The notes under the pieces were generated by a model that was not told where the DNA came from, ran no database searches, and saw only the letters and a program-made list of their open reading frames with translations. Below, in pieces: positions 11,499 to 24,739 of a DNA stretch of 32,000 nucleotides (positions within the stretch are counted from its first letter, which is position 1; each line of letters begins with the position of its first letter). Source of the stretch: Candidatus Saccharimonadota bacterium (lineage in GTDB: Archaea > Nanobdellota > Nanobdellia > Pacearchaeales > GW2011-AR1); the NCBI GenBank assembly GCA_049511795.1, contig JBEKXS010000001.1, positions 300,001-332,000 on the forward strand, written 5' to 3'. The translations under genes and the position numbers were made by a program.

Positions 11499-12152
11499 TC
11501 AAAACCTCTCGCACCATTCACATCCTTCATGAGGGCATTCCCCATTCAATAGTTCAAGAGCTTTTTTCCATAAAAATTCTGCATTCTTAACATCTGTCTT
11601 CATTCTTTTCAGTGTTATGTCAAAAACAAATTCGCCTGTAGGAAGAACTTCTTTAGGAACATAGAACAAAAGGAAAGCGTAATCCTCTGTTTCATAGTCA
11701 TTTTTTCTTAGAAGAAAATTATAAATGTCAAGTTGGTCCTGGTAATGTTCATGCGTGTCTTCTTTCAGCTCAAATCCGCGGGTTTTGTAGTCAAGAACAA
11801 TTATTTTTTTTCCTTTCATAAGAAGATTATCTACAGCTCCATGGAGAATATTTCCTTTGGAATCCTGCCAAGAAATTCCTTTCAGGTTATTTCTCCAGAT
11901 TGTTAACTTCTCTTCGTCATCAAACAAAGTGCATCCTTCTTCTTTGCACTCACTTTTGTCCAGCTCAGGCGGCAATTGTCCTTTATCTCTGAATTTGTCA
12001 AAATGTGTCTTGAGTATTTTGTCCATTCCAGAAGGTAGGCTTGGAAAAATTCCAATAGGACGCTTCCAAACATTATGTTTGTCAAGCCAGAAACATCTTG
12101 GGCAGTCATTCATGAGAGAAATTGAAGATGGTGAAATGGAAAATGTTTTCAT
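11499..12152 (-). CDS. Cas4-like / RecB-family PD-(D/E)xK nuclease with a four-cysteine (Fe-S) signature
   Basis: N-terminal SPSSISLMNDCPRCFW, motif II HGAVDNL, motif III VLDYKT, QhxxY-like YQDQLDIYNFLL, and C-terminal CPHEGCEWC. The start is taken at the internal ATG (MKTFSISPSS...). Confidence 0.75.
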   Translation of the reverse strand: MKTFSISPSSISLMNDCPRCFWLDKHNVWKRPIGIFPSLPSGMDKILKTHFDKFRDKGQLPPELDKSECKEEGCTLFDDEEKLTIWRNNLKGISWQDSKGNILHGAVDNLLMKGKKIIVLDYKTRGFELKEDTHEHYQDQLDIYNFLLRKNDYETEDYAFLLFYVPKEVLPTGEFVFDITLKRMKTDVKNAEFLWKKALELLNGECPHEGCEWCERF

Positions 12153-12240
12153 CAAAAGAAAAACAGAAAGCAACTTATATAATTTTCTTACTGAGCAATT
12201 CAATAAAAAGGTTTTTAATTCAGATACTTTTGTTTAGATA

Positions 12241-12510
12241 ATGGATTTTATACTCAGCTTGCTTGAGGTGTCAATAGTTCTTGCGGTATTTGTATGGGGA
12301 GAAGTTTTGGTCAGATTTTTGCTTGGCTTCACAAGATGGACAGGAGACTTGATTGGATTTGGGATATTTATTTTTATTATTCTTATATTAAGTCTGTTCA
12401 GCCAAGAGGTTGCGCAGTTTATCCTTGACAAATTTGGGGAAAATGTTGCATGGATTTTCTTTGTTTTCGTGCTGATTGGGGCTTGGATAAATTATAGAAA
12501 GAAGTATTGA
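12241..12510 (+). CDS. Small membrane protein (about 3 TM)
   Basis: 89 aa, hydrophobic throughout. Confidence 0.5.
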   Translation: MDFILSLLEVSIVLAVFVWGEVLVRFLLGFTRWTGDLIGFGIFIFIILILSLFSQEVAQFILDKFGENVAWIFFVFVLIGAWINYRKKY

Positions 12511-12541
12511 TTACAGTTTTTCCTGGACTTTATTGAATAAA

Positions 12542-12907
12542 TTAATCAAAATCTAAAGATTTGAAGATTTTAATAACTCTGTTAATATCGTCTTTGCTTA
12601 AAGTCTTAAAAATTTCGGGTTTTTCTATTCTTAGTTTTTCTAATGCTTGAGGTAGAATAGTCATGGTTCCATTCTCTTTTATTTTAATATATGACTCAAA
12701 TTCTTCTTTATAATTTGGAGCGAATCTGTGACAGTTTCTACATAAGGTTATTAAATTATTTATATTATCTTTACCTTCAAAGACTAATGGTGTTATGTGA
12801 TGCACTTCTAGCTTATTACCAGTTTCATCATTTAACCGGCATTTTTGGCATGTAAATTTATCTCTTTTTAGTGCTTGTTTTCTTAAAGTTTGGTTTCTTG
12901 TTTTCAT
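12542..12907 (-). CDS. HNH endonuclease
   Basis: CQKCRLNDETGNKLEVHHITPLVFEGKDNINNLITLCRNCHRF shows CxxC...HH...N...N...CxxCH. The ATG at 12907 is one nucleotide after the xerA stop (TAA-A-ATG). Confidence 0.8.
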   Translation of the reverse strand: MKTRNQTLRKQALKRDKFTCQKCRLNDETGNKLEVHHITPLVFEGKDNINNLITLCRNCHRFAPNYKEEFESYIKIKENGTMTILPQALEKLRIEKPEIFKTLSKDDINRVIKIFKSLDFD

Positions 12908-12908
12908 T

Positions 12909-13736
12909 TTACAAACTATCAATCGGACTTTTTATTTTCTTTAATTCTTCCTGACTAATATGGGTGTAAATCTGTGTCGTGTTTAGGTCTGCATGGCCCA
13001 AAAGCTCTTGGATTTTCCTTATGTCTGTGTTATTTTCCAGAAGATGTGTTGCAAAGCTATGCCTTAATGTATGTGGGTGTACACTCTTTTTTATTCCTGC
13101 TTTCTGTGCTGATTTAACAACTATTTTTTGGATATTTCTGGAAGATAAAGGACCTTTTGCTCCTGTGAAAAGATATTCCTGGTTGTTTTCTTTCTGCATT
13201 TCTGCTTGTTTCTTTAGTCTTAATGCAAGAGTTTCTGGTATATTGAATGTTCTGTCTTTTCTTCCTTTTCCCTGCCTTATCTGACCTATGCCCTCTTCAA
13301 AGTTGATCTCTTTAATTTTCAGGCCTGTTAGCTCAGATACCCTCATTCCACAAGCGTAGAGCATTGAAATCATAAGTCTGCTTTTTTTGTTTTCTGTAGA
13401 ATCAATCAGTGCCTTGATCTCTTCTTTTGTAAGAACAGCTGGAATTTTTCTTTCTCTTTTTGGGCGTTTGATGTTCTCTGTTGGGTTTCTCTGGAAAACA
13501 ACAGAATAGGCATATTTTATTGCAGAAAGGAAAAGCACAATTGATGAAGATGTTTTGTCTGATAGATTTTGAGCCATAAATGCCTTAATGTCATCCTGAT
13601 CTATTGCCTCAGGGCTTTTATTTAAGAAATCCAGGAGTTTTTGATTTGCAGTTACATAGTTCCTAACTGTATAGTCTGAGTTCTTGGATATCTTTAATTC
13701 TGTTTCCAACTTTTTCAGAAACACTTCTTTTTCCAT
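12909..13736 (-). CDS. xerA: Tyrosine recombinase, XerA/XerCD-like
   Basis: 275 aa. An N-terminal SAM-like core-binding domain is followed by a catalytic domain with R (CGMRVSEL), HxxR (HTLRHSFATH), H (LLGHADL) and Y (TQIYTH). Confidence 0.9.
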   Translation of the reverse strand: MEKEVFLKKLETELKISKNSDYTVRNYVTANQKLLDFLNKSPEAIDQDDIKAFMAQNLSDKTSSSIVLFLSAIKYAYSVVFQRNPTENIKRPKRERKIPAVLTKEEIKALIDSTENKKSRLMISMLYACGMRVSELTGLKIKEINFEEGIGQIRQGKGRKDRTFNIPETLALRLKKQAEMQKENNQEYLFTGAKGPLSSRNIQKIVVKSAQKAGIKKSVHPHTLRHSFATHLLENNTDIRKIQELLGHADLNTTQIYTHISQEELKKIKSPIDSL

Positions 13737-13746
13737 GTATTTGCTA

Positions 13747-13812
13747 GTGCGAACTTATTTATAAAAAAGTGCTGTAATTATTGAGTTCGTACAATACATC
13801 TTGTGCGAAGTT
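13747..13812. promoter_or_regulatory. Three copies of a GTGCGAA(C/G)TT-like 10-mer around the xerA TATA box (candidate operator or recombinase-binding sites)
   Basis: GTGCGAACTT at 13747-13756. AGTTCGTAC at 13784-13792 is the inverted copy with one mismatch. GTGCGAAGTT at 13803-13812. TTATTTATAAAAAA lies between the first two. Confidence 0.35.
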
Positions 13813-13832
13813 TTACTAAGGAAATTTTGTTT

Positions 13833-14207
13833 TTAGATGAAAGGATCTCTTCCAACTCTTCTTCTTTTAATTTCTGCCGCTCTTTCGACTAATGATTTAT
13901 CTGAATTTTCTAATTCTGTTAACTTAGGTAAGCTTTGTGCACGTGCTTCAAGTGTTGATTTCTCAACTGCTGCATCATATCTCTTCCTAAATTCTGATTT
14001 AAGGTCAAGGGTATGAATATATTCTTTAACAAAAATTCTGTATTTTGGGTTTAGAGAAACTTGTGCCATTTCTTCTGGGGACATGCCTAAGCTAGGTAAA
14101 TCAACCCCTAATGAGCGATAATAATCAGCCCTTGATTCTGCAAATTTATTCCTTTTTATTGCCAATATCCTCATTATTCTCTTAAATTCTGGAGAGAGAT
14201 TATCCAT
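13833..14207 (-). CDS. Hypothetical helical protein
   Basis: 124 aa ORF, co-directional with and upstream of xerA. No motif recognised. Confidence 0.5.
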   Translation of the reverse strand: MDNLSPEFKRIMRILAIKRNKFAESRADYYRSLGVDLPSLGMSPEEMAQVSLNPKYRIFVKEYIHTLDLKSEFRKRYDAAVEKSTLEARAQSLPKLTELENSDKSLVERAAEIKRRRVGRDPFI

Positions 14208-14372
14208 AAAACACTGAAAAAGCTGAAGTTTTTAAGAATTTATATAATAAAAGAGACAGACTTCAAAGTATTCTGAAATAATTATGACCCTTCTTGTGCA
14301 ATTAGGTCATCTTAATGAAGACGTTGGAATAAAGTTAAAGTAAAATAAAAAACAAATTAGAGTAACTAGGAC

Positions 14373-14540
14373 TTATCTCTTTTTAGATCCGTAGTTTCTC
14401 ATGAGCTTGCCAATTCCCATTACTAGGAATGATAGGCCTATCAACCAACTTGATAGTGTTACTCCTATATCCAAATTGAGTAAAGGCAATAGCCACAATA
14501 CTCCAATAAGAGTAACAAGCCAGGCACTTAGTTTTGCCAT
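14373..14540 (-). CDS. Small two-TM membrane protein (55 aa; below the ORF-track cut-off)
   Basis: Manual translation: MAKLSAWLVTLIGVLWLLPLLNLDIGVTLSSWLIGLSFLVMGIGKLMRNYGSKKR. A GGAGGT Shine-Dalgarno (complement of 14551-14556) lies 10 nt upstream of the ATG. Confidence 0.45.
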   Translation of the reverse strand: MAKLSAWLVTLIGVLWLLPLLNLDIGVTLSSWLIGLSFLVMGIGKLMRNYGSKKR

Positions 14541-14776
14541 TTAAATTCATACCTCCTTTCGTTCAAGTTATAGGAAAAAAGAGATTATAAACATTTCGAA
14601 AGCTAGTGAAAAAGGTTGCAAAAATATATGAGAAAAAAGAGCAAAAAAACAGCATTTTCAGACTATTTTCAGGGAAAAGAGGGTTTGTCGACGGAATTTT
14701 AATATTTTGATGCAAATTTTTTGCAAGAATTTTTGTTTTGGGCGAGTTTTGTGCACTAAGGTTAGCTTTGTGCATA

Positions 14777-14889
14777 GGTGTTTAGAGGTCGCTGTTTGGT
14801 GTTTGTTGGAGTAGAGTGCTGTTTGATGATGTTTAAACAGGCTGTTTGGGGCTGTTTATAGGTGTTTTTTAAGACATTTTTGTCTGTTT
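14777..14889 (+). repeat. Iteron array: nine same-orientation copies of G[C/G/A]TGTTT (the last copy is TCTGTTT)
   Basis: Copies start at 14777, 14791, 14798, 14818, 14828, 14841, 14851, 14861 and 14883. Several are spaced about 10 bp apart. Nearby are a TTTGTGCA direct repeat (14748, 14767) and the palindrome TGCAAATTTTTTGCA (14711-14725). Confidence 0.65.
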
Positions 14890-14965
14890 TTGGAGTTTTG
14901 AAAAGGGTGTGGATAAAAATGGATTTTAGCTAAAAAATAGAGAATTTTCGTCGGGAAAAGAAAAG

Positions 14966-14975
14966 ATATTTAAAC
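14966..14975 (+). promoter_or_regulatory. Putative TATA box with a purine-rich BRE for the 14996 gene (leaderless)
   Basis: GGAAAAGAAAAGATATTTAAAC has its TATA-like element centred about 26 nt upstream of the ATG at 14996. Confidence 0.35.
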
Positions 14976-14995
14976 TATATTTCTTAAGATAATGT

Positions 14996-15604
14996 ATGTT
15001 TGGGTGGCTTTTTGGTAAAAAAGAGAATGAAGCACTAAAAGAGGACACAAAAAAAGGATTTGATTCTGTCAAAAAAGACATAAATTCTGTTGTTGGATGG
15101 ATTAAACACCTTGATTCTGAAGGAAATTCTATGAAAAAAGAAATTAATGAGCTAAAAGAAGCTTTATCGTCGATACAAAATGACATGGAAGGGATGAAAA
15201 ATGTTGTTGCAATAATGAATGAGCTAAGTCCAAAGGCAAAAAATCAAACAGCTAAACAGCTGTTTAACAAACAACCCTCTGTTTATGCTGTTCAAACAGG
15301 TGTTCAAACAGGTGTTCAAACACCAAATTTTGACCAATTTTCAGTAACAGAAAGAGCAATTATTTGGGTACTTTTAAATTCTGATTTAAAATTAGGATAT
15401 GATGATCTTGCTGCAATGCTTGGAAAAGAGAGATCAACAATAAGGGGGCATTTGAACAGAATAAAACAGAAAAGTACAGGATTAATAGAAGAAATCGTTG
15501 AGAAAAATGGGAAAAAAAGGGTATTTGTACCTGAAGAAGTGAAGGAAAAACTATTGAAAAGGGTAAAAGTGAGGCTTAAAGAAGGCAAAAAAGACAAAAA
15601 ATAG
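14996..15604 (+). CDS. Coiled-coil / linker / C-terminal winged-HTH DNA-binding protein (uncharacterised family)
   Basis: 202 aa. N-terminal heptad-rich region (FDSVKKDINSVVGWIKHLDSEGNSMKKEINELKEAL), a VQTGVQTGVQT linker, an HTH (SVTERAIIWVLL...LGYDDLAAMLGKERSTIRGHLNRIKQK) and a basic tail. Confidence 0.7.
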   Translation: MFGWLFGKKENEALKEDTKKGFDSVKKDINSVVGWIKHLDSEGNSMKKEINELKEALSSIQNDMEGMKNVVAIMNELSPKAKNQTAKQLFNKQPSVYAVQTGVQTGVQTPNFDQFSVTERAIIWVLLNSDLKLGYDDLAAMLGKERSTIRGHLNRIKQKSTGLIEEIVEKNGKKRVFVPEEVKEKLLKRVKVRLKEGKKDKK

Positions 15605-15847
15605 AGGAAAATGAAGGTTTTAAGCTAAAAATTAAAGGAAGAAAGTCAAAAAGTGAGAGTTGTTGATAAGGATTTCAAAGGAAAAAATTAGATAAAAAAT
15701 CAAAAATAAGAGAAAACAAAGAAAAATTAAAGAAAGAGTGAAAAAATAAAAAGTCTGAAAGTCGGAAAAAGAGGGTTATTAAGGCTTTTAGGGGAAACTA
15801 TATTAATTAATCGGTATAACGATTAGTTGGTAATTTAATAAGAAGAA

Positions 15848-16660
15848 TTAAATGTCCCTTAGCTGCAGAATCGTCGACAAAGAGGCCACTTTCTTGAGGT
15901 TTTGGGAAACACTCAGCATGATCTGTTTGTTATTTATTTTTGTTTTATCGACGGGAATTCCTTTTTTAAGCAGCCTTCTTATGTAATCTCTTATAGAGCT
16001 TTCTGTAAGTTTTAGTTTCTCAGCAAGAACTCGGTATTCAACAGGGCCTTGTTCTTCCTCTAGCTGGTATAATGTCGAGAAAACCATGAGCTCCTGGTCT
16101 GTAAGATTCTTGAATTTAAGCCTGATTTCCTTCTTCAAACTGTCTAGGGAATCCAGCATTTTTGCAGCATCTTCTATAGGGCTTTGAGATTGGGTTTGAA
16201 AAATTGGCTTTTTAGGCTGGATTATAGGGGATTTTTGTGTGAAAACATGCTGTTGCAAGGGGTTTTTTGGCTTGTTCTCAAGCCAATTGTCTGTCTGTTG
16301 GTCTGTCTGTCTGTCTGTTGGAACCCCTTCATTTCCAGTGGAAAAACCTTGATTTTGGGGTTTTAAAGGGTTTAAAGGCCAACTATGTGTTGGAAAATGT
16401 GTTGGAGTTGTCTGATTTATATGTTGGTTTGCTGGATGTATTGTTGGTTGGTTTATTGGTAAATTTTGTGGTTTTGTGTTGATTTTTTTCAATTCCAAAG
16501 AAATTTTTTCAAGGATTTCACAGATTTTGCCCAAGTCTTGCTTCATTTCAGACATGTCTTTTTTTAAAACAGAAATATCAAAATTAAGAATGTCTATGTC
16601 TCTTTTAACATTCTGGAATGATTCTTTTATTTTGTTGCTGTCTCCTTCCTGTGAGTCCAT
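15848..16660 (-). CDS. Coiled-coil / long P,Q,T-rich linker / C-terminal winged-HTH protein; paralog of the 14996-15604 product
   Basis: 270 aa. The N-terminal FQNVKRDIDILNFDISVLKKDMSEMKQDL parallels FDSVKKDINSVV... in the partner. The linker is about 110 aa of low complexity. The HTH reads LTDQELMVFSTLYQLEEEQGPVEYRVLAEKLKLTESSIRDYIRRLLKKG. Confidence 0.7.
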   Translation of the reverse strand: MDSQEGDSNKIKESFQNVKRDIDILNFDISVLKKDMSEMKQDLGKICEILEKISLELKKINTKPQNLPINQPTIHPANQHINQTTPTHFPTHSWPLNPLKPQNQGFSTGNEGVPTDRQTDQQTDNWLENKPKNPLQQHVFTQKSPIIQPKKPIFQTQSQSPIEDAAKMLDSLDSLKKEIRLKFKNLTDQELMVFSTLYQLEEEQGPVEYRVLAEKLKLTESSIRDYIRRLLKKGIPVDKTKINNKQIMLSVSQNLKKVASLSTILQLRDI

Positions 16661-16732
16661 CGTTTTTTGAAATAATGCCCATATAAAAAGTTAAGTCTCT
16701 TTCAGTATACATATTTGCCCAATAACTGAAAA

Positions 16733-17014
16733 TTATTCTTTCTCAGGTGCGCCAATTGATTTGTAAGCGCTATATACTGAATCACTGAGCTTCCATCTTG
16801 ACCTTTTCATGTAGTCTTTTCCCTTGGAATTCTTCTTGATTTCAAGAACAAGGGCTTTCTTCTTCAGGTCAAGGAGAAGTGCTTTGACAAATTCCTCATC
16901 CCTGACAACTTCCTGGGCAATATGGGATGTAAAATCAGATCTTGGTGAGATAGAATAAAGGAATGCGAGTATTTGCTCTGAGATTTTATCTTTCTTATTG
17001 TTAGATATATTCAT
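16733..17014 (-). CDS. Small winged-helix DNA-binding protein
   Basis: 93 aa. ISEQILAFLYSISPRSDFTSHIAQEVVRDEEFVKALLLDLKKKALV is a typical wHTH layout (H1-H2-recognition helix-wing). Confidence 0.5.
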   Translation of the reverse strand: MNISNNKKDKISEQILAFLYSISPRSDFTSHIAQEVVRDEEFVKALLLDLKKKALVLEIKKNSKGKDYMKRSRWKLSDSVYSAYKSIGAPEKE

Positions 17015-17041
17015 AGAAAAGAGCTGTTTCTTAATTTTAAA

Positions 17042-17470
17042 TTACTTTTCTTTTTTCTCTTCTGTATTCTCGTTGCTTACAACAGGCATAGGCATGTGTG
17101 TAGGAAGATTCATTTCATCTTCCAATTCAAGGGCCTTTATTGTTGCCTTTCTAAGAATTATATTGAAAACAACATTTCTGAACTCGTCTGGAAGTTTCTT
17201 TTTCTTCCAGTCTCTTAAAGTGTCTTTTGCCTGCTGCTCTTCTAAAGAAAGGATTATTGTGCCTTTAAGGTCGATTTTAGCTATTTCTGGGTCGTATTTA
17301 ACAGTGTAAATAAAGTCAATTTGAATTGGCTTTTCCTCGCCCTTCAAAATATTATCTTTAAGCTCTTCAATATCTTCAATATCTATGTTGGAATTGACGC
17401 TTAATTCTCCCTGTTTTCCTTTGAGTCTTTCAACACTTATCTTACTAAAATTAAATCCCAATATTCTCAT
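17042..17470 (-). CDS. Hypothetical protein (weak resemblance to a SecB-like chaperone fold)
   Basis: 142 aa. Beta-rich N-terminal half, then VVFNIILRKATIKALELEDEMNLPTHMPMP, which is reminiscent of the SecB C-terminal helix/loop. Pattern-level similarity only. Confidence 0.5.
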   Translation of the reverse strand: MRILGFNFSKISVERLKGKQGELSVNSNIDIEDIEELKDNILKGEEKPIQIDFIYTVKYDPEIAKIDLKGTIILSLEEQQAKDTLRDWKKKKLPDEFRNVVFNIILRKATIKALELEDEMNLPTHMPMPVVSNENTEEKKEK

Positions 17471-17585
17471 GAAAAGTAGAAATGTAAGGTATTTTTAAAG
17501 TTTTAGTAATTTTAAAAATAATATCAATAGAATGAGAATATTCTTTACAATGAAAGATAATCTGGCTTAATTTAGAACTGTCTGA

Positions 17586-17846
17586 TTAAACTAAATCTTC
17601 TTCTGAAACTATCACAAAGTCCCCTATTGCTATGATAGAATTGTAAGGAACAAGAAGCTCATTTGATGAGGTCTTTTCCAGGTTCAAATTTCTCGTATAA
17701 GGGGTAGAATCTTTCACTACCAAACTTATAAGCTCACCTGATTTTGTCTCAAAGGTGACGTCCCTGACAAAGCCCAGTCTCTTTCCTTCTTTAGTCACAA
17801 TCATCTTTCCTACTATACTTCTAAAGGGATTTTTATCGCCTTGCAT
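17586..17846 (-). CDS. PRC-barrel domain protein
   Basis: 86 aa. GKMIVTKEGKRLGFVRDVTFETKSGELISLVV...LVPYNSIIAIGDFVIV matches the PRC-barrel pattern common in archaea. Confidence 0.7.
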   Translation of the reverse strand: MQGDKNPFRSIVGKMIVTKEGKRLGFVRDVTFETKSGELISLVVKDSTPYTRNLNLEKTSSNELLVPYNSIIAIGDFVIVSEEDLV

Positions 17847-17947: not shown

Positions 17948-18356
17948 ACACCCTCACCCCCTTATTTCCCATAGAAGTATTTAAAAAGAAAAAATTGATT
18001 TTTTTATTTATATTATTTATTTAAAAAAATTTATATTATATAGTATATAGATATATTATATTTTATTATTATATTATAATTATTTACTATAATTTAGTTA
18101 TTTTATCTTATTTTCTTTAAAATTTATTATTAATTTAATTAAGATAATTAATAATTTAATATAACCTAATTAAAATTTTTCTTAGCTAATTCTTGTTAAG
18201 GACTAAAATCCAAAAAATCAAGCAAAAATCCTTTTCCACATGAAATTGAGGCGTTCTTCTTTATTAGTAGTCATAAGTGTTTATATAAAGAATTATTTTT
18301 TTGCCGTTACAAAATATTTCAGGCTTAATTTCTCCACAAGAAACATACGTGTGAGG
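17948..18356. other. Predicted chromosomal replication origin (oriC): ORB-like boxes flanking an A+T-rich unwinding element
   Basis: By my count 18001-18180 holds only 9 G/C in 180 nt. On the left the minus strand reads CTTCTATGGGAAATAAGGGGGTGAGGG (17948-17977). On the right are TTTCCACATGAAATTGAGGCG (18233-18253) and TCTCCACAAGAAACATACGTGTGAGG (18329-18356). orc1/cdc6 lies immediately downstream. Confidence 0.6.
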
Positions 18357-18390
18357 TATAAGCAGGAAATTAAGGGCGAAAAGAGAGAAA

Positions 18391-19602
18391 ATGAAAGCAG
18401 AACTAGACAAAATATTTGAATCTTTCGACGGAAACAGAATCTTCAAAGACAAATCTATTTTGCAAAGCAATTACAGGCCTGAAGAAATTCCGCACAGGGA
18501 AGAACAGATAAAACAAGTTGCTTCAATACTTGCTCCAGTTCTCAGGGGAGAAAGAACAAGCAATCTTTTTCTTTACGGGAAAACAGGTTCTGGAAAAACA
18601 CTTTCAATTCTCTATGTTAGAGATGAACTGCTGAAAAGGGCAAAGAAAGACAGCGACTTCAACCTAAGAATAGAATACCTAAACTGCAAGCTGAAAAAGG
18701 TTTCTGACACAGAATACAGGATTCTTGCTGAAATGATTAAGAAGCTTGGCGGAGAAGTGCCAAATACTGGATTGCCAACAGAGACAGTTTACAGCAAGTT
18801 TATAGAAATGGTTGACAAAGAGAAACAATTCCTTGTCTTTATTTTGGATGAAATAGACCAAGCTGTAAAAAAAATTTCAAGCGACTTTCTTTACAATCTG
18901 ACAAGGCTTAACTCTGAATTGTCAAAATCACAGATTTGCATTGTTGGAATAAGCAATGACCTTACTTTCCTAGACAACCTTGACCCAAGAGTAAGAAGCT
19001 CTCTTTCTGAAGAAGAAATTGTATTTCCACCATATAATGCATTACAACTCCAGGAGATTCTTAACAAAAGAGCTGAAAACGCATTCAAAGAAAAGGTTGT
19101 TCAGGAAGGTGTCATCGCAAAATGCGCTGCATTTGCTGCAAGGGAGCATGGAGATGCAAGAAGAGCCCTTGACCTGCTCAGAATTGCAGGAGAGATTGCA
19201 GAAAGGGATAATTCAAAGAAAATAATGATGAAATATCTTGATGAGGCAAACACGAAAATTGAAAGGGACAAAATTCTTGATGTAATAAAGACAGAGCCAA
19301 AGCAATTCCAGTATGTTTTGCACTCAATAATAAATTTATCTGAAAAAAATAACGGCAGTCCTGTTTTCACAGGAGATGTTTACAATTTTTATGAGGAAGT
19401 ATGCCTGAAAAACAAGGCAGAAGTTTTGACCCAAAGGCGTGTTTCAGACATTATACAGGAATTTGACATGCTGGGAATAATCAATGTCAAGGTTGTTTCA
19501 AAAGGAAGAGGGGGAAGAATGAGGGAAATTAAACTTGCAATTGCAAAATCAATTACTGAGAAAGCAAAGGAAATAATTGAAGAATCTTTGAGATATAATT
19601 AA
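18391..19602 (+). CDS. cdc6: Orc1/Cdc6 replication initiator (AAA+ with a C-terminal winged helix)
   Basis: 403 aa. Walker A GKTGSGKT, Walker B FILDEID, sensor regions, GDARRALDLLR, and a C-terminal wHTH. Confidence 0.95.
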   Translation: MKAELDKIFESFDGNRIFKDKSILQSNYRPEEIPHREEQIKQVASILAPVLRGERTSNLFLYGKTGSGKTLSILYVRDELLKRAKKDSDFNLRIEYLNCKLKKVSDTEYRILAEMIKKLGGEVPNTGLPTETVYSKFIEMVDKEKQFLVFILDEIDQAVKKISSDFLYNLTRLNSELSKSQICIVGISNDLTFLDNLDPRVRSSLSEEEIVFPPYNALQLQEILNKRAENAFKEKVVQEGVIAKCAAFAAREHGDARRALDLLRIAGEIAERDNSKKIMMKYLDEANTKIERDKILDVIKTEPKQFQYVLHSIINLSEKNNGSPVFTGDVYNFYEEVCLKNKAEVLTQRRVSDIIQEFDMLGIINVKVVSKGRGGRMREIKLAIAKSITEKAKEIIEESLRYN

Positions 19603-19621: not shown

Positions 19622-21253
19622 ATGGACACAAAAGAAATCCTAAAATTTTGTATGGAACGAGGCCTACTTTTGGATCCAGAGGTCCTTAATCTTTTCAGCG
19701 ACGTTGCAGATGATGACTCTGTCAAACTTATTATAGACAGAATTCAGAGGTATACGCAAAAAAGAATTATAACAAAAGATATTATTGAGAAAAATAAAGA
19801 GCAAGTTAGCGAATTTTTTCTTGAACTGCCAAAAGAAAATCAGGCAAAATTAGAGAGGCTTAAGATAAAGCTCGGATTGCAAATAGAAATTTCAAAAGAA
19901 AGCGCTGTTGTTTCACAGAATCCAACGAATACATACACAATATTGAATCCTGATGATTTGAATGAGCAGTCAAAAGTCGTTGTTTTGTCAAAAACACCTT
20001 CTTTCAGGAAAAAAATAGAGGTTGACGATTTTGTAAAAACAATGAGAAACAGAATTCTTGAAATGAAAGAAATGCTACAGGAGCACCCTGACCTTGACGG
20101 GCTTATTTCAATAAACAAGCTTTCAAAAACTAGACAGAAAGTCTCAATCATTGGAATGGTTTCTGACAAAAGAATAACAAAAAACAAAAACATAATTTTC
20201 GAGGTTGAAGACCTAACAGGAAAGATAAAAGTTCTTGTTAGCCAGGGAAAAGATGAGCTTTTCAAGAAAGCAGATGAAATTTCACTAGATAGTGTGATGG
20301 GATTTACTGGTTTCGGAGACAGGGAAATATTTTTTGCAAATGATGTTGTTTTTCCAGATGCATTTCTTCCTGAAAGAAAGCATTCACCATTTGAGGAAAG
20401 CGCTTTGTTTATCGGAGATATTCATTATGGAAGCAAGCTTTTCATGGAAGATAGCTTTCTCAAATTTATAGATTATGTGAATGGGAAAGGCGGTAAGCCT
20501 GCAGAAGCAGAAAAAATAAAATACATTTTTATTAATGGAGATATGGTTGCTGGTGTTGGAGTTTATCCTGGCCAACAAAGAGACCTTAAAGTTGAAGACC
20601 TGGAGGTACAGTTTCAAGGATTTGCTGAATTATTAAGCAAAATAAGACGCAATATCAAAATTATAATTTCTCCAGGAAATCATGATGGTGTTAGGTTAAT
20701 GGAACCCCAGCCAATGCTAGATGAAAAATATGCATGGCCATTATACAATATGAAAAATGTTACACTTACTGGAAATCCAACATACTTAAATATCGGAGCT
20801 GGAAAAAACTTTTCTGGATTTAATGTATTGAGCTATCATGGAGGTTCTTATCCTTTTTACTCAAACACTGTCCCAAGCCTTATGAAGAAGGCACTGAACG
20901 AACCTGAAAAAATAATGGCTTATCTTCTGAAGAACAGGCATCTTGCACCAACTTATTCTTCTGTGCAAATGTTTCCTTCTGAAAAAGATGAACTTGTAAT
21001 TAAAAAAATACCAGATATTTTTGTTTCAGGGCACATACACAAATGCGCTGTTACATATTACAATAATGTGATGATTGTTTCAGGAGCGGGTTGGGAAGAA
21101 GAAACAGAATACCAGAAAAGAAAAGGAATTACTCTGGATTTCTGCAAAGTTCCTTCGTTCAATTTGAGGACAAGGGAAGTAAAAATTCTTGACTTTGATA
21201 TCAAGGAAGAACATGAAAAACTTATGCACAGAGAGCTGAAAATTAAAGAATAA
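19622..21253 (+). CDS. dp1: DNA polymerase II (PolD) small subunit DP1, with calcineurin-like phosphoesterase/exonuclease domain
   Basis: 543 aa. An OB-fold region is followed by phosphoesterase motifs GDIHYGS, NGDMV, SPGNHD and GHIH. Confidence 0.9.
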   Translation: MDTKEILKFCMERGLLLDPEVLNLFSDVADDDSVKLIIDRIQRYTQKRIITKDIIEKNKEQVSEFFLELPKENQAKLERLKIKLGLQIEISKESAVVSQNPTNTYTILNPDDLNEQSKVVVLSKTPSFRKKIEVDDFVKTMRNRILEMKEMLQEHPDLDGLISINKLSKTRQKVSIIGMVSDKRITKNKNIIFEVEDLTGKIKVLVSQGKDELFKKADEISLDSVMGFTGFGDREIFFANDVVFPDAFLPERKHSPFEESALFIGDIHYGSKLFMEDSFLKFIDYVNGKGGKPAEAEKIKYIFINGDMVAGVGVYPGQQRDLKVEDLEVQFQGFAELLSKIRRNIKIIISPGNHDGVRLMEPQPMLDEKYAWPLYNMKNVTLTGNPTYLNIGAGKNFSGFNVLSYHGGSYPFYSNTVPSLMKKALNEPEKIMAYLLKNRHLAPTYSSVQMFPSEKDELVIKKIPDIFVSGHIHKCAVTYYNNVMIVSGAGWEEETEYQKRKGITLDFCKVPSFNLRTREVKILDFDIKEEHEKLMHRELKIKE

Positions 21254-21256
21254 AAA

Positions 21257-24200
21257 ATGGATACAAAACAATATTTCAAAAACATAGAATCAGAGACAAA
21301 GAAAATCTATGAAGTCGCGGAAAGGGCAAGGGCAAAAGGGCTGGACCCACAGGACAAAGTTGAAATTCCATTGGCAAGAAGCCTTGCTGAAAAAGTTGTT
21401 GGCCTGATTTCAACGCTTTATCCACAAATGATGGATTCTGGAATTGTTGAAAGAATGATTGAACTTGAAAAAAAACATGGAAAACTAGACCCTGCTGTAT
21501 GTTTGCAGATTGCAGAGGAAATTTCAAAACAAAAATTCTGCAAGTTTGCGAGCCTGAAGGAAGCAATAGAAGCAGGAGCGAGAACAGGAGTTGCATACAT
21601 AACTCTTGGAGTTGTTTCAAGTCCTATAGAAGGACTAACTGAAATAAAAATATGTAAAACAAGAGACGGAAAAGAATATCTTAGCCCTTATTATTCAGGA
21701 CCGATAAGAAGTGCAGGAGGTTCTGGTGCTGCTTTTTCTTTGGTTATTGTAGATTATCTGCGTGAATTGTTTGGATATAGTAAATATGACCCAACAGAAG
21801 ATGAAATAAAAAGAAGTGCTGTTGAATTGCATGATTATCATGAAAGAATTACAAATCTTCAATATATGCCAACAGATGATGAATCAAAATTCCTTGCAGC
21901 AAATATTCCTGTTCAAATTAATGGAGAACCATCTGAAACCTTGGAAGTTTCAAACTACAAAAATCTTGAAAGGGTAGAAACGAATTTGCTTAGAGGGGGG
22001 TTTTGCCTTGTTCTTGGAGAAGGAATTGCACAAAAAGCAAAAAAAATTGCAAGATACATTTCTTCATTAAAGAAAAAAGGATTTAAATTAAGCGATTGGG
22101 AATTTTTGGATGAATATGTAAAGCTTCATGAAAGAAGAGACATGGGAAAAACAGATGCCTCGCCAACATATATTCAAGACCTAGTTGCTGGAAGGCCTGT
22201 TTTCGGGCATCCTTCTGAATCAGGAGCTTTCAGATTTAGATATGGCAGAGGAAGATCTTCTGGATTTAGTGCAACGTCAATTCATCCTGCAACAATGGAG
22301 ATAACAGACGAATTTATTGCAATAGGAACACAACTTAAGATTGAAAAGCCGACGAAAGGCTGCATTGTCACTAGTTGTGATTCAATAGACGGTCCAATTG
22401 TCAAGCTTTACAATGGTTCTGTCAAAAAAATAAATACAAAAGAGGAGGCAAAGAAATTATATGCTGATGTTGAGGAAATAATCTATCTTGGAGACATTCT
22501 TTTTCCATTTAGCGATGTTGCCAACAGGAATGCAAATCTTTTGAAGCCAGGATATGTCGAGGAATTCTGGAAATTAGAATTGAGGGAAAAAAATCCAGAG
22601 CTTGAGAAAACAACTGATCCATTTAAAATTGATTTTGAAAAAGCCATTGAAATAAGCAACAAAGAAAAGATTTCCCTTAATCCAAAATACATTTTTTATT
22701 GGACAGAGATATCAAAAGAGCAGCTTTTGAATTTGATAGACTGGCTTAAGCAGGGAAAAACAAGCAAGAAAATAATTCTTCCTTTCACAAAATCAGACCA
22801 GGAGAAATTTGGCCATGGAAAAAGAGCGCTTGAACTTCTTGGCATTGAGCATGATTTTGTAATAGAACATGTCATAATAAACCAAGAGAACAGCAAGGCA
22901 ATGCTTGCAAATCTTGGAACTGATTTTGAAATTGTTAATGAAGAAAAAGAGTTAAGGTGGGAATTTGAAGAATATTCTGAGAAAATCAAGAAAACAATTT
23001 CTGAAAATCCTGATTTTGGTGTTTTGGAACTGATTAATTCTGCTTCCAAACTAAACATAAGAAACAAAGCAGGAGATTTTATCGGTGCGAGAATGGGAAG
23101 GCCAGAGAAAGCAAAATTAAGAAAGCTTACAGGCAGTCCAAACGTACTTTTTCCTGTTGGAGAAGAAGGAGGAAGATTAAGAAGCTTCCAGTCAGCTGTT
23201 GAAAACGGAAGTGTATCAAGTGTTTTCCCAATATATAAATGTGAAAAATGCAACAAGGAAACTATTTACAGAACATGCGAAACCTGTGGAGAAAAAAGCA
23301 GAAAAATGTTTTATTGTCCAGAATGCGGAATCAACAAAACAGAAAAATGTGAGCAGCATAAAAATTCTTACTCATACTCAAACAATTCAATAGACATGAA
23401 CTATTATTTTGAAAGTGCAAGAGAGAAACTTGGATTGTCAAGCGGAGAAATACCCCCGTTAATTAAAGGAGTAAGAGGAACAATGTCTGAAGGGCATATT
23501 GTTGAAAATTTAAGCAAGGGAATTTTAAGAGCGATGTTTGACTTGCAAGTAAACAAAGATGGAACAATAAGATTTGATGCAACAGAAATGCCCTTAGTTG
23601 CTTTCAAGCCAAAAGAAATAGGAGTTAGTGTTGAAAAATTACGGGAAATTGGTTATGACAAAGATATTAACGGGGAAGAACTTGTTAATGATAATCAGAT
23701 TTTGGAATTAATGCCACATGATATTCTTCTTCCAAGCTCTCCTGAATCGCCAGATGGAAGAGCTGATGATATTTTCATGAGAATATGCCATTTTGTCGAT
23801 GATATGCTTGTAAAGCTTTACAGGATGGAACCTATTTACAATGTCAGGAAAAGAGAAGATTTAGTTGGTAAAATTGGTGTTTGTATTGCGCCACATAATT
23901 GTGCAGGTGTTGTTTGCAGGATTATTGGATTTTCAAATACTTTAGGAATGTTTGCAAGTCCATTCATGCACGCTGCAATCAGAAGAGACTGCGATGGTGA
24001 TGAAGCAGCTATAATGCTTTTGGGAGATGTCTTGATAAATTTCTCAAGGGAATTTCTCCCACAGCACAGAGGAGGAAATCAGGATTCGCCACTTGTCCTT
24101 AATGCAAAGATTGACGCAGGAGAAGTTGATGACCAAATAATGGATTTCGAGCTTGTCAAGGAATACCCTATTGAATTATACAGGCTTGCAGAAGAAAGGA

Positions 24201-24739
24201 AACACTCTTCTGAAGTTTCAATTAAAGATGTAAGAAAAGCTTTGAAAAATGGAGACGATCCATTCCAAAACATTTTCTTTACGCATAACACAGAGAATAT
24301 CAATGATGGAGTTGCATGCTCAAGCTACAAACTTTTGGAAACAATGCAAGACAAGGTAAATCACCAAATGGAGCTTGTTGAAAAAATAAGGGCTGCAAAC
24401 ACAAGCGAGACAGCAAGGCTCATAATTGAAAGACATTTCTTGAGAGACATGAGAGGAAACCTGAGAAAATTTTCGATGCAGGAATTTAGGTGTGTTGCAT
24501 GCAATGAGATAATGAGAAGGCCTCCCCTAACAGGTTTTTGCCCAAAATGCGGAGGAAGAGTAATTTTCACGACAAATGAAGGCGGAATCAAAAAATATCT
24601 TGAACCTGCTTTGAACCTCGCAAAAAAATATAATCTATCTTCTTACATAAAACAGTCTTTGGAACTGACAAAAAGACAGATTGACTCTCTTTTTGGAAAA
24701 GAAATAGAATCACAAGAAAATCTTGGTAGGTGGTTCTAA
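21257..24739 (+). CDS. dp2: DNA polymerase II (PolD) large catalytic subunit DP2
   Basis: 1160 aa. The DP2 N-terminus is conserved (YF...ERA...GLDP...VEIPLA). Zn fingers CEKCNKE...CETCG, CPECG and CVACNE...CPKCGG are present. The start is 3 nt after dp1. Its length is consistent with an intein-free DP2. Confidence 0.95.
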   Translation: MDTKQYFKNIESETKKIYEVAERARAKGLDPQDKVEIPLARSLAEKVVGLISTLYPQMMDSGIVERMIELEKKHGKLDPAVCLQIAEEISKQKFCKFASLKEAIEAGARTGVAYITLGVVSSPIEGLTEIKICKTRDGKEYLSPYYSGPIRSAGGSGAAFSLVIVDYLRELFGYSKYDPTEDEIKRSAVELHDYHERITNLQYMPTDDESKFLAANIPVQINGEPSETLEVSNYKNLERVETNLLRGGFCLVLGEGIAQKAKKIARYISSLKKKGFKLSDWEFLDEYVKLHERRDMGKTDASPTYIQDLVAGRPVFGHPSESGAFRFRYGRGRSSGFSATSIHPATMEITDEFIAIGTQLKIEKPTKGCIVTSCDSIDGPIVKLYNGSVKKINTKEEAKKLYADVEEIIYLGDILFPFSDVANRNANLLKPGYVEEFWKLELREKNPELEKTTDPFKIDFEKAIEISNKEKISLNPKYIFYWTEISKEQLLNLIDWLKQGKTSKKIILPFTKSDQEKFGHGKRALELLGIEHDFVIEHVIINQENSKAMLANLGTDFEIVNEEKELRWEFEEYSEKIKKTISENPDFGVLELINSASKLNIRNKAGDFIGARMGRPEKAKLRKLTGSPNVLFPVGEEGGRLRSFQSAVENGSVSSVFPIYKCEKCNKETIYRTCETCGEKSRKMFYCPECGINKTEKCEQHKNSYSYSNNSIDMNYYFESAREKLGLSSGEIPPLIKGVRGTMSEGHIVENLSKGILRAMFDLQVNKDGTIRFDATEMPLVAFKPKEIGVSVEKLREIGYDKDINGEELVNDNQILELMPHDILLPSSPESPDGRADDIFMRICHFVDDMLVKLYRMEPIYNVRKREDLVGKIGVCIAPHNCAGVVCRIIGFSNTLGMFASPFMHAAIRRDCDGDEAAIMLLGDVLINFSREFLPQHRGGNQDSPLVLNAKIDAGEVDDQIMDFELVKEYPIELYRLAEERKHSSEVSIKDVRKALKNGDDPFQNIFFTHNTENINDGVACSSYKLLETMQDKVNHQMELVEKIRAANTSETARLIIERHFLRDMRGNLRKFSMQEFRCVACNEIMRRPPLTGFCPKCGGRVIFTTNEGGIKKYLEPALNLAKKYNLSSYIKQSLELTKRQIDSLFGKEIESQENLGRWF

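Follow-up and report, generated by a model that had tools for sequence, protein, structure and literature searches.

The DNA considered here is a 32-kb window (the whole stretch that was analyzed, 32,000 nucleotides [nt]), taken from the chromosome of a DPANN archaeon of the Pacearchaeota/Nanoarchaeota type with a low GC content (~33%). Between the gene for a small membrane protein and the gene for wH202, a 202-amino-acid (aa) protein with a predicted winged helix-turn-helix (wHTH) domain, it contains 453 nt (positions 14543 to 14995) in which a 7-mer, G[C/G/A]TGTTT, is repeated in a dense array on one strand. The explanation to which we lean, with modest confidence, is that the array would be a cooperative, helically phased set of sites for the adjacent wHTH protein, working as an autoregulatory or nucleoprotein hub and not as a plasmid iteron origin. 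We favor a cooperative array acting at the level of DNA because its units are fixed, they keep a register of one helical turn, they form palindromes of the type bound by dimers, they are linked to a wHTH gene, and they are mirrored by sites inside that gene. The wH202 product is the most probable binder. Coordinates of all features are collected in Table 1.

A phased 7-mer array upstream of wH202 genes

A sequence-only reading that preceded this work had counted nine copies of G[C/G/A]TGTTT. Eight of them are strict, while the ninth (14883 to 14889) reads TCTGTTT and lacks the first G. Its other figures for the array are borne out: four exact GCTGTTT copies fall within 67 bp (14791 to 14857), and the distances that it took for helical phasing of about 10 bp are almost always 10 or 13 nt in the relatives, while in the window the last five strict units follow each other at 10, 13, 10, and 10 nt. 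Relative to the wH202 ATG, the array extends from −219 to −129. In 1000 dinucleotide-preserving shuffles of the window, at most 3 G[C/G/A]TGTTT units fell within 113 nt on either strand (8 observed) and the maximum of GCTGTTT per 67 nt was 2 (4 observed), while shuffling of positions 14543 to 14995 alone gave a mean of 0.36 units and a maximum of 4, against the same 8 observed. The local GC fraction at the array (~0.33) equals the window average.

We fetched 80 genomic loci with wH202 orthologs, 76 of which were usable for comparing the 450 nt before the ATG, with protein identities to wH202 ranging from 48 to 90%. The earlier reading had proposed checking whether relatives keep the array beside homologs of the neighboring gene, and they do so strongly in these 76 orthologous loci, where 193 copies of GCTGTTT (3.8 expected, as calculated from the remainder of these loci) and 167 of GGTGTTT (4.1 expected) were counted. 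The 7-mer is thus ~45-fold enriched, with its position and strand preserved among the loci. Each locus has from 1 to 11 units (mean, 5.4), concentrated between −300 and −125 with a peak at −200 to −150. Successive units start 10 nt apart in 103 cases and 13 nt apart in 54, and the distances between all pairs form the series 10, 13, 20, 23, 30, 33, 43, 53, 63. A 13-nt step arises where an inverted half-site is inserted, as in G(G)TGTTT-AAACAG-GCTGTTT, giving the 10-bp palindrome TGTTTAAACA; other frequent arrangements of half-sites are AAACAGCTGTTT and, in some lineages, GGCTGTCCAAACAGCC. Palindromes of these three kinds, built from inverted half-sites in fixed register, are what would be expected for dimeric DNA binders. 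Where a locus has no more than two or three units, the palindromic core is still there.

Aligned with each other, the eight closest loci agree in every TGTTT block but differ in the spacers and in the second base of the unit. Over all loci the 3-nt spacers comprise at least 20 different triplets, and the second base is C in 47% and G in 41% of the units. Since TGTTT is fixed while its surroundings change, we attribute the array to selection on the 7-mer and its helical register and not to replication slippage. The contrary explanation, a neutral G/T-rich tandem repeat derived from low-complexity sequence or slippage, can point to a metagenome scan with the pattern GNTGTTT(N3)GNTGTTT(N3)GNTGTTT, which is over-general and finds this three-unit arrangement in many unrelated tandem repeats: 116 of 120 stretches among the matches listed are perfect 10-mer tandem repeats of unrelated organisms, and this is what neutral repeats look like. 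Here, however, the spacers differ and only the 7-mer is fixed, and position and strand of the array do not change among lineages whose proteins are as little as 48% identical. The conservation pattern appears to refute the neutral explanation effectively, and we give it next to no probability. The other four stretches in the same set of matches listed are DPANN-like. Three of these adjoin wH202 homologs (L123, L143, and L172), found independently and 48 to 66% identical, and in the fourth (L196) the array lies at a contig end.

Clusters of at least three units were found 65 times upstream of the gene, 39 times inside it, and twice elsewhere in 582 kb of flanking DNA, and the rest of the 32-kb window holds no further cluster of this size. 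One of the two outlying clusters, in locus L029, has the composite core GGTGTTTGGACAGGCTGTTTAAACAGTTGTTT at −3231 (locus coordinates 770 to 801). Taken together, conservation, position, phasing, and exclusivity to the locus support the earlier suggestion of a functional multi-site array, putatively bound by a protein and tied to the adjacent coiled-coil/wHTH gene.

The suggestion of plasmid or viral iterons, made in the same reading, did not hold up. Iteron plasmid origins (RepA, pi, TrfA) carry iterons of 17 to 22 bp in the same orientation, bound by a winged-helix protein encoded next door, and the array is like them in having same-orientation repeats beside the gene of a winged-helix protein. 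It is unlike them in that its units have half the length, it has no adjacent DNA-unwinding element (DUE), it lies at a chromosomal, syntenic locus, and a canonical origin with origin recognition boxes (ORBs) and a DUE is found 1.5 to 3 kb away. Pfam/NCBIfam scans of all neighboring genes revealed no Rep-family gene (only wHTH proteins, XerA, HNH, and PD-(D/E)XK nuclease), and both the array core and any wH202 homolog are absent from 2.9 million viral contigs (IMG/VR).

The two minus-strand open reading frames (ORFs) of the region (14563 to 14775 and 14926 to 15186), rightly taken before as shadows, have no conserved counterparts in related loci, and for this reason we call the region noncoding. 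Across the array itself all six frames are closed or nonconserved, and a protein-coding array was rejected on this ground. A structured RNA is likewise disfavored, by the absence of any Rfam match in the array at the gathering threshold or at an E value of ≤1, by single-sequence folds of the region with nonsignificant z-scores on either strand (−1.4 and −1.9), and by an RNAalifold result with 0 compensatory pairs and an unfavorable covariation term (+0.94).

The wH202 protein, its promoter, and the half-sites in its coding sequence

A protein-database search returned 2490 homologs of wH202, the best 120 of which are full length and 66 to 90% identical, and the source metagenome-assembled genomes of the homologs are labeled Pacearchaeota, Nanoarchaeota, or Woesearchaeota. 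As judged from these searches, wH202 is among the most conserved proteins of this lineage. In its AlphaFold (AF2) model, a long N-terminal helix (residues 5 to 77, low confidence) and a disordered linker, VQTGVQTGVQT, which contains the invariant motif VYAVQTGVQTGVQTPNF, precede a winged helix (residues 111 to 180) with a predicted local distance difference test (pLDDT) score of 81 to 90 and a basic tail. Foldseek matched the winged helix to MarR, MepR, SlyA, ArsR, and Sulfolobus AbfR2 (Lrs14 family), including DNA complexes, with E values of 1e-4 to 1e-3 for MepR, MarR, SlyA, and AbfR2. No Pfam wHTH model reaches its cutoff on wH202, generic HTH matches stay far below family cutoffs, and the family hidden Markov model (HMM) scores are 20.1 bits for Sta1 (cutoff, 80) and 13.6 for Lrs14 (cutoff, 90). 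Since all HMM scores lie far below the family cutoffs, wH202 is predicted to be a wHTH DNA binder of an undescribed family. The N terminus, M-F-(G)-W-(L/F)-F (14996 to 15013, residues 1 to 6), is invariant or nearly so across the family, with M1, F2, and W4 conserved in 22 aligned orthologs, and its MFGW might serve, in front of the long helix, as a short motif for binding a membrane or a partner.

Archaeal wHTH proteins, such as EarA at the Methanococcus fla promoter, Ptr2, and the Sta1/Lrs14 family, recognize short repeats upstream of the transcription factor B recognition element (BRE) and TATA box. The wH202 domain resembles the Lrs14/MarR fold, and the neighboring wH93 has a weak EarA-like match. 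The differences from these systems are the HMM scores, the unique N-terminal helix and VQTG linker of wH202, and the array, which, with up to 11 units, is larger, has a strict phase, and recurs in mirrored form within the coding sequence. The wH202 product is deemed the prime candidate for binding the array.

The wH202 promoter is itself conserved. Of 74 loci, 65 have TTTAAA between −50 and −26, and ahead of it lie a purine-rich run and, at about −48, a TCGWCG box (box C). The ATG follows TTTAAA by 26 nt and no Shine-Dalgarno sequence is present, so we infer a leaderless mRNA, with a transcription start site (TSS) placed accordingly. The array repeats and the palindromic core have their center ~150 nt ahead of the TATA box and stay clear of it.

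If wH202 is the binder, a dimer would nucleate on the universal palindromic core (TGTTT-AAACA, then GCTGTTT), and more subunits would join cooperatively on the flanking G[C/G]TGTTT units. With one helical turn between units, namely 10 nt, or 13 nt where the palindrome intervenes, all subunits would sit on one face of the DNA. The long N-terminal helix would oligomerize and may bridge to the inverted half-sites in the protein's own coding region (codons 84 to 110). Such a complex, about 100 nt upstream of the TATA box, could set the transcription of the leaderless wH202 mRNA, i.e., an autoregulation by upstream activation or by looping repression. It would probably cooperate with box C and with a second companion element, the E1 box described below, both presumably read by factors such as the neighboring wH270 and wH93. 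Of all this, the analysis shows the array with its phasing and palindromic core, its strict linkage to the wH202 family, the wHTH fold, and the synonymous constraint inside the gene; the binder, cooperativity, looping, and the sign of regulation belong to the proposed model.

The half-sites inside the gene include those of the earlier reading, which had correctly reported AAACAGC at 15246 and 15254 and the palindrome AAACAGCTGTTT at 15254 to 15265. Synonymous codon choice in this stretch is constrained among 77 orthologs: at codons 85 to 115, Thr is encoded by ACA in 94 to 99% and Gln by CAA in 97 to 100%, and Val in the motif stretch is encoded by GTT in 79 to 97%, whereas other invariant Thr positions have ACA in 60 to 72% (Thr18 and Thr148) or mostly ACT (Thr118, 60%). 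This suggests that constraint acts on the intragenic half-sites at the nucleotide level.

Several points weigh against the interpretation that we prefer. The array could instead be bound by an unlinked factor, by Orc1, or by wH270 or wH93. A few codons scattered elsewhere in the gene (Ser41, Ser160, and Val192) are equally fixed, which makes the codon test supportive and not decisive, and part of the synonymous fixation may stem from other constraints or from how closely the sampled genomes are related. Since the array overlaps neither the TATA box nor the BRE nor the TSS, it is unlikely to act by simple steric autorepression. The exclusivity of the array refers to ±4 kb around the gene plus this 32-kb window. 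Finally, the strand bias of the units (167 GGTGTTT upstream of wH202 orthologs versus 13 copies of the reverse complement), the T6 run directly after the array, and the promoter-like blocks upstream of it would also fit a short plus-strand transcript.

Such a transcript would be a small RNA that starts near E1 or box C, carries G[C/G]UGUUU repeats, and ends at the T-run, acting as a protein sponge or pairing with the AAACAG-rich part of the wH202 mRNA. Besides the strand bias, it could account for the peak of T6 runs right behind the array in relatives (98 matches in the bin from −150 to −125), for the T/A blocks and box C on the upstream side, and for complementarities of 10 to 14 nt (pairs I14, I17, and I23) between the array and codons 84 to 110, an mRNA stretch under synonymous constraint. 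Behind the array, the T-rich tail may represent a signal resembling a terminator, a T-tract, or what is left of an ORB. The T-rich block farther upstream, whose palindrome TGCAAATTTTTTGCA (14711 to 14725) was already noted together with GTTTAAAC in the earlier reading (both are present), matches a conserved 'aaattttt..ttaatttt' that lies left of the gene-proximal E1 at a constant distance, and it looks, by its sequence, like a BRE/TATA-type promoter. Repeat-motif RNAs of this kind are known in the GGA repeats of CsrB/RsmZ sponges and the (G/U)AG repeats of periodic TRAP targets, with which the array shares many short motif copies on one strand and short, variable spacers. However, the 38 copies of the upstream box C have no consistent TATA box behind them, T5-6 runs interrupt the putative transcript in many loci, and neither a significant fold nor covariation nor an Rfam family accompanies it. 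The commonest repeat in the mRNA, AAACAGG, falls short of exact complementarity to the array units. In contrast to the CsrB and TRAP targets, the zero-spacer palindromic cores and the 10-nt register, beside a gene for a DNA-binding protein, point more naturally to duplex DNA. We regard the small RNA as rather unlikely; if it exists, DPANN archaea would have their first repeat-motif sponge or antisense RNA. A second promoter, made of box C and TATA, for an RNA from the array was rejected because no TATA box consistently follows the upstream box C.

Box C, the E1 box, and the variable upstream side

The window has 11 copies of TCGWCG where 1.27 are expected, and 7 of the 11 fall between 14688 and 15953. 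Box C sites stand at 14688, 14948, 15167, 15871, and 15948 (also at 18425, 22350, and 25366) and cluster around both wHTH paralogs, wH202 and wH270. In relatives, box C recurs at about −250, about −48, and +172 of wH202 and at a fixed position in wH270. The +172 copy forces a rare codon, TCG, on Ser58 of wH202, which is used in 93% of the orthologs.

The direct repeat TTTGTGCA of the earlier reading is present at 14748 and 14767, but its two copies are the arms of one 25-bp pseudo-palindrome, which we call the E1 box. The 22-nt core of E1, TGTGCACTWAGGTTANCTTWGT, was found 167 times on the plus strand and 4 times on the minus strand of 81 loci, with 1 to 5 direct copies per locus, all 200 to 2000 nt upstream of wH202 among variable small minus-strand genes. 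Tight coupling of E1 to the stop codons of these genes was rejected, as the distribution of the gaps is broad. Almost every position of E1 is conserved, while its stem columns 8/20 and 9/19 are paired in only 34 to 47% of 164 copies and covariation is absent. On this ground a hairpin of RNA or DNA was rejected, and E1 is read as a DNA box recognized by a protein. E1 is also found, as a perfect palindrome, in 11 IMG/VR contigs; 7 of the 11 viral copies precede a large-terminase gene by 200 to 800 nt and have CGACG motifs and long G-runs (G8) next to them. A role as a protein box, an attachment site, or a packaging-related site is possible.

The DNA upstream of the gene-proximal E1 is the variable side of the locus, and an attachment or recombination role of E1 is possible for this reason. 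Compared with three related loci (L001, L002, and L004), synteny of the window breaks near its second E1 copy, and with the closest relative, L001, between 12542 and ~14327. A XerA-family recombinase gene lies upstream in 28 of 63 loci, and a gene for a 55-aa membrane protein in 21 of 63. The array might then be an accessory region, of arm-type or architectural kind, for XerA-type recombination at E1 as an attachment or dif-like site, where the protein bound to it would give directionality or topological selectivity, like the accessory sequences of cer and psi. This would agree with the almost exclusively direct orientation of the E1 copies, with their confinement to the variable 1 to 2 kb upstream, with gene content that differs among close relatives between and beyond E1 copies (including the 124-aa ORF without homologs), with a recombinase above its family cutoff, and with a half-E1 near the synteny break in L001. 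The viral E1 contigs, which bear no integrase homolog, were counted on the same side. Yet the breakpoints lie near E1 and not at it, the opposite boundary has no E1, no provirus flanked by E1 was seen, and the ORFs between E1 copies showed no homology to the viral contigs that carry E1. The layout reported for archaeal dif consists of 11-bp inverted arms and a 6-bp spacer (PMC2958812), whereas E1 has arms of ~9 to 10 bp and a center of 3 to 5 bp and, unlike a single-copy dif, is multicopy. Integrons are defined by an IntI with an additional integron-specific domain and by attC hairpins of 57 to 141 nt that are defined by structure (PMC9668308); the integron-integrase model scored 210 on the recombinase (cutoff, 265), matched in two pieces, and E1 and the recombinase are not assigned to an integron. 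L143 keeps the array and has no E1, from which it follows that the two are separable and that the array goes with the wH202 gene and not with E1. An accessory recombination region is deemed very unlikely.

The origin-proximal neighborhood and comparison with known systems

The array was rejected as an ORB or origin, as canonical ORBs and the DUE lie elsewhere and it has no dyad: against the ORB definition (TTCCAnnGGAAA dyad plus G-string), its best match has 8 of 17 specified positions mismatched, which equals background. An AT-rich DUE (18000 to 18180) is flanked by ORB-like boxes, and dyads of the TTCCATAGGAA type are about 45- to 65-fold enriched upstream of orc1 in 55 loci; based on the AT-rich stretch, the boxes, and the enrichment, we place the canonical oriC at 17950 to 18360. 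The distance of ~3 kb from oriC given in the sequence-only reading is right for the DUE (~3.1 kb), but the nearest canonical ORB is just 1.45 kb away (16323 to 16343). This ORB lies inside the coding sequence of wH270, 1.6 to 2 kb from the DUE, and is kept with 0 or 1 mismatch, always on the same strand, in ~70 of 76 loci. Next to it, a TGTC tandem repeat (16288 to 16318) encodes DRQTD repeats.

Of 69 loci, 9 (L009, L012, L013, L014, L016, L022, L039, L045, and L047) have a good ORB right behind the GNTGTTT array, roughly 140 to 100 nt before the start of the gene (e.g., TTCCATTAGAAACCGAGGGGCTTCGACAC). In many loci the ORBs upstream of orc1 read TTCCACAGGAAAT-nnn-GGTGTTTTTC, GTGTTTTTC occurs 26 times (1.3 expected), and the 3' flank of the ORB is often GGTGTT(T)TTC, which resembles an array unit. 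The units could on these grounds be decoy or auxiliary sites for Orc1/Cdc6, a titration cluster similar to datA, were it not that they have no TTCCAnnGGAA dyad, that half of them are GCTGTTT, which is not the ORB flank, that the best match in the array does not rise above background, and that the resemblance rests on ~6 nt. We find this exceedingly unlikely. The array is not an origin but lies in an origin-proximal neighborhood to which Orc1, as far as these patterns tell, very probably comes.

In the window, and in as many as 55 related loci on chromosomes, the locus shares synteny with ribosomal protein genes, orc1, and polD. The gene order wH202(+), wH270(−), wH93(−), 142-aa ORF(−), PRC-barrel(−), orc1(+), polD(+) is kept in essentially all loci, with oriC between the PRC-barrel gene and orc1 and with orc1 present in 55 of the 57 loci that reach far enough. 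Conservation of this block from wH202 to polD, together with the ORB in wH270 and the ORBs that abut the array, speaks for an array devoted mainly to origin-proximal chromosome organization, i.e., a centromere-like or tethering site or a site of initiation control, and not to a transcriptional operator. Coiled-coil wHTH proteins would coat the phased sites, and the MFGW motif and coiled coil would tether or pair the origin or modulate Orc1. The layout is like those of parC/ParR and tubC/TubR, and the protein architecture recalls organizers of the RacA and MatP type. Nevertheless, Pfam/NCBIfam scans revealed no ParA, ParM, TubZ, or SegA-type nucleoside triphosphatase (NTPase) in the conserved block (14996 to 17846) or among the upstream genes, there is a single array per locus, and its fixed distance from the promoter of the gene fits regulation. 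Chromosome organization as the main task seems to us improbable. We give a similarly low probability to the array, E1, TCGWCG, and both coiled-coil wHTH paralogs forming an undescribed, motor-free (no ParA or SegA) nucleoprotein center near the origin of DPANN archaea of the Pacearchaeota/Woesearchaeota type; and it is likewise only a minor possibility that such a center would be a centromere-like, tethering, or initiation-control device coupling Orc1 binding, chromosome positioning, and the expression of its own components.

The centromere-like site named in the sequence-only reading is a minor possibility: the array does lie upstream of the gene of its candidate binder in 76 loci, but the defining NTPase partner is absent. 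In parC-ParR of plasmid R1 and tubC-TubR of pBtoxis, phased direct repeats upstream of the coating protein's gene double as its autoregulatory operator, and TubR is a winged-helix protein. The array shares with them short direct repeats about one helical turn apart, directly upstream of the candidate binder gene. It differs in being chromosomal and conserved across a phylum-level group, in having no linked ParM- or TubZ-type NTPase, in its units of 7+3 nt instead of 11 to 12 bp, and in lying ~100 nt upstream of the promoter and not over it. The omega repressor of pSM19035/inc18 binds cooperatively to runs of 7 to 10 direct or inverted 7-bp heptads, which serve as operator and centromere. The 7-bp units in mixed direct and inverted orientation are similar here, whereas omega is a ribbon-helix-helix protein on contiguous heptads, and the present array has a 10-nt register, a long-helix wHTH candidate, and a chromosomal origin region. 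RacA-ram, MatP-matS, and Noc-NBS combine a helical oligomerization module with a sequence-specific DNA-binding domain that acts on dispersed palindromic sites near a replication landmark. A helix joined to a DNA-binding domain and sites near such a landmark are found here as well, but in one dense array at the protein's own gene and without sequence homology.

Against the defining tests, the array is neither a plasmid iteron origin nor a canonical partition locus, an ORB, or a member of a known RNA family, and its neighbor belongs to no curated wHTH family. What sets the array apart are the mirror sites within the gene, the two companion boxes, and the paralog that contains an ORB; its most likely function is an ordinary one. 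A search of the literature yielded nothing relevant on the wH202 family, the array motif, the E1 box, or a DPANN virus element. We know of no experimental work on gene regulation, origin control, or chromosome segregation in DPANN archaea of the Pacearchaeota type. The locus offers a compact, testable cis/trans pair, a conserved 202-aa protein and a 7-mer array in strict helical register, within 1.5 to 3 kb of a replication origin and beside a paralog that carries an ORB. If wH202 binds as predicted, the pair would be the first operator code for this lineage and a handle on how origin activity is linked to gene expression or chromosome organization in ultra-small archaea.

Table 1 Features of the 32-kb window around the repeat array (positions in nt of the window)
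Feature	Position	Strand	Description
Ribosomal-protein/RNA-polymerase cluster	1.5-6.4 kb
PD-(D/E)XK nuclease gene	11499-12203		On the variable, island-like side (11499-14330)
HNH endonuclease gene	12542-12922		On the variable side
XerA-family tyrosine recombinase gene	12909-13736		Above NCBIfam XerA_Arch cutoff
Orphan 124-aa ORF	13833-14207		No homolog in any of 80 related loci
Weaker E1 copies	14295-14316, 13917-13938	+
Small membrane-protein gene	14373-14540	−	Left neighbor of the 453 nt
Upstream box C	14684-14697		TTTGTCGACGGAAT, TTATCGWCGATAA palindrome type
T-rich block	14711-14739		Contains palindrome TGCAAATTTTTTGCA
E1 box	14750-14774	+	TGTGCACTAAGGTTAGCTTTGTGCA, conserved 22-25-bp pseudo-palindrome
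Core array	14777-14867	+	8 strict G[C/G/A]TGTTT units, read from the sequence; conserved in orthologous loci
Array units 1-4	14777, 14791, 14798, 14818	+	GGTGTTT, GCTGTTT, GGTGTTT, GCTGTTT
Array units 5-8	14828, 14841, 14851, 14861	+	GATGTTT, GCTGTTT, GCTGTTT, GGTGTTT
Universal palindromic core	14830-14847	+	TGTTTAAACAG-GCTGTTT, within the array
T-rich tail	14865-14891	+	T6 14865-14870, T5 14877-14881, T5 14887-14891
Degenerate ninth unit	14883-14889	+	TCTGTTT
wH202 promoter	14944-14975	+	Box C TCGTCG at 14948 (−48), purine-rich BRE-like run, TATA ATATTTAAAC at 14966-14975
wH202 gene	14996-15604	+	202 aa; right neighbor of the 453 nt
Intragenic box C	15163-15176		TTTATCGTCGATAC, wH202 codons 57-60
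Intragenic half-sites	15246-15327	−	AAACAGC twice; palindrome AAACAGCTGTTT
Intragenic repeats	15290-15322		3 × GTTCAAACA (= TGTTTGAAC on the minus strand), region of codons 84-110
wH270 gene	15848-16660	−	270-aa paralog: coiled coil, low-complexity linker, wHTH; converges on wH202
Box C copies in wH270	15871, 15948
Perfect ORB	16323-16343	−	TTCCACTGGAAATGAAGGGGT, inside the wH270 coding sequence, encoding FSTGNEGVPTDRQTD
ORB-like boxes of oriC	17956-17976, 18234-18254, ~18331	−, +, +	Upstream of orc1
Orc1/Cdc6 gene	18391-19602	+
PolD DP1 and DP2 genes	19622-24739	+

A further GCTGTTT had been noted in the promoter region of the small wHTH gene, which encodes 93 aa. The copy exists (17023 to 17029), but only in the window and its closest relative, and any such motif is found there in just 6 of 71 loci; as it is not conserved, it is probably a chance occurrence and indicates no regulon.

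Nearly all related loci also keep, between the wHTH genes and oriC, the genes for an uncharacterized 142-aa protein (17042 to 17470) and for a PRC-barrel protein (17586 to 17846; median identity, 79%). Proteins with a PRC barrel have been linked to archaeal cell division, and the presence of one here hints, on that basis, at a cell-cycle gene block.

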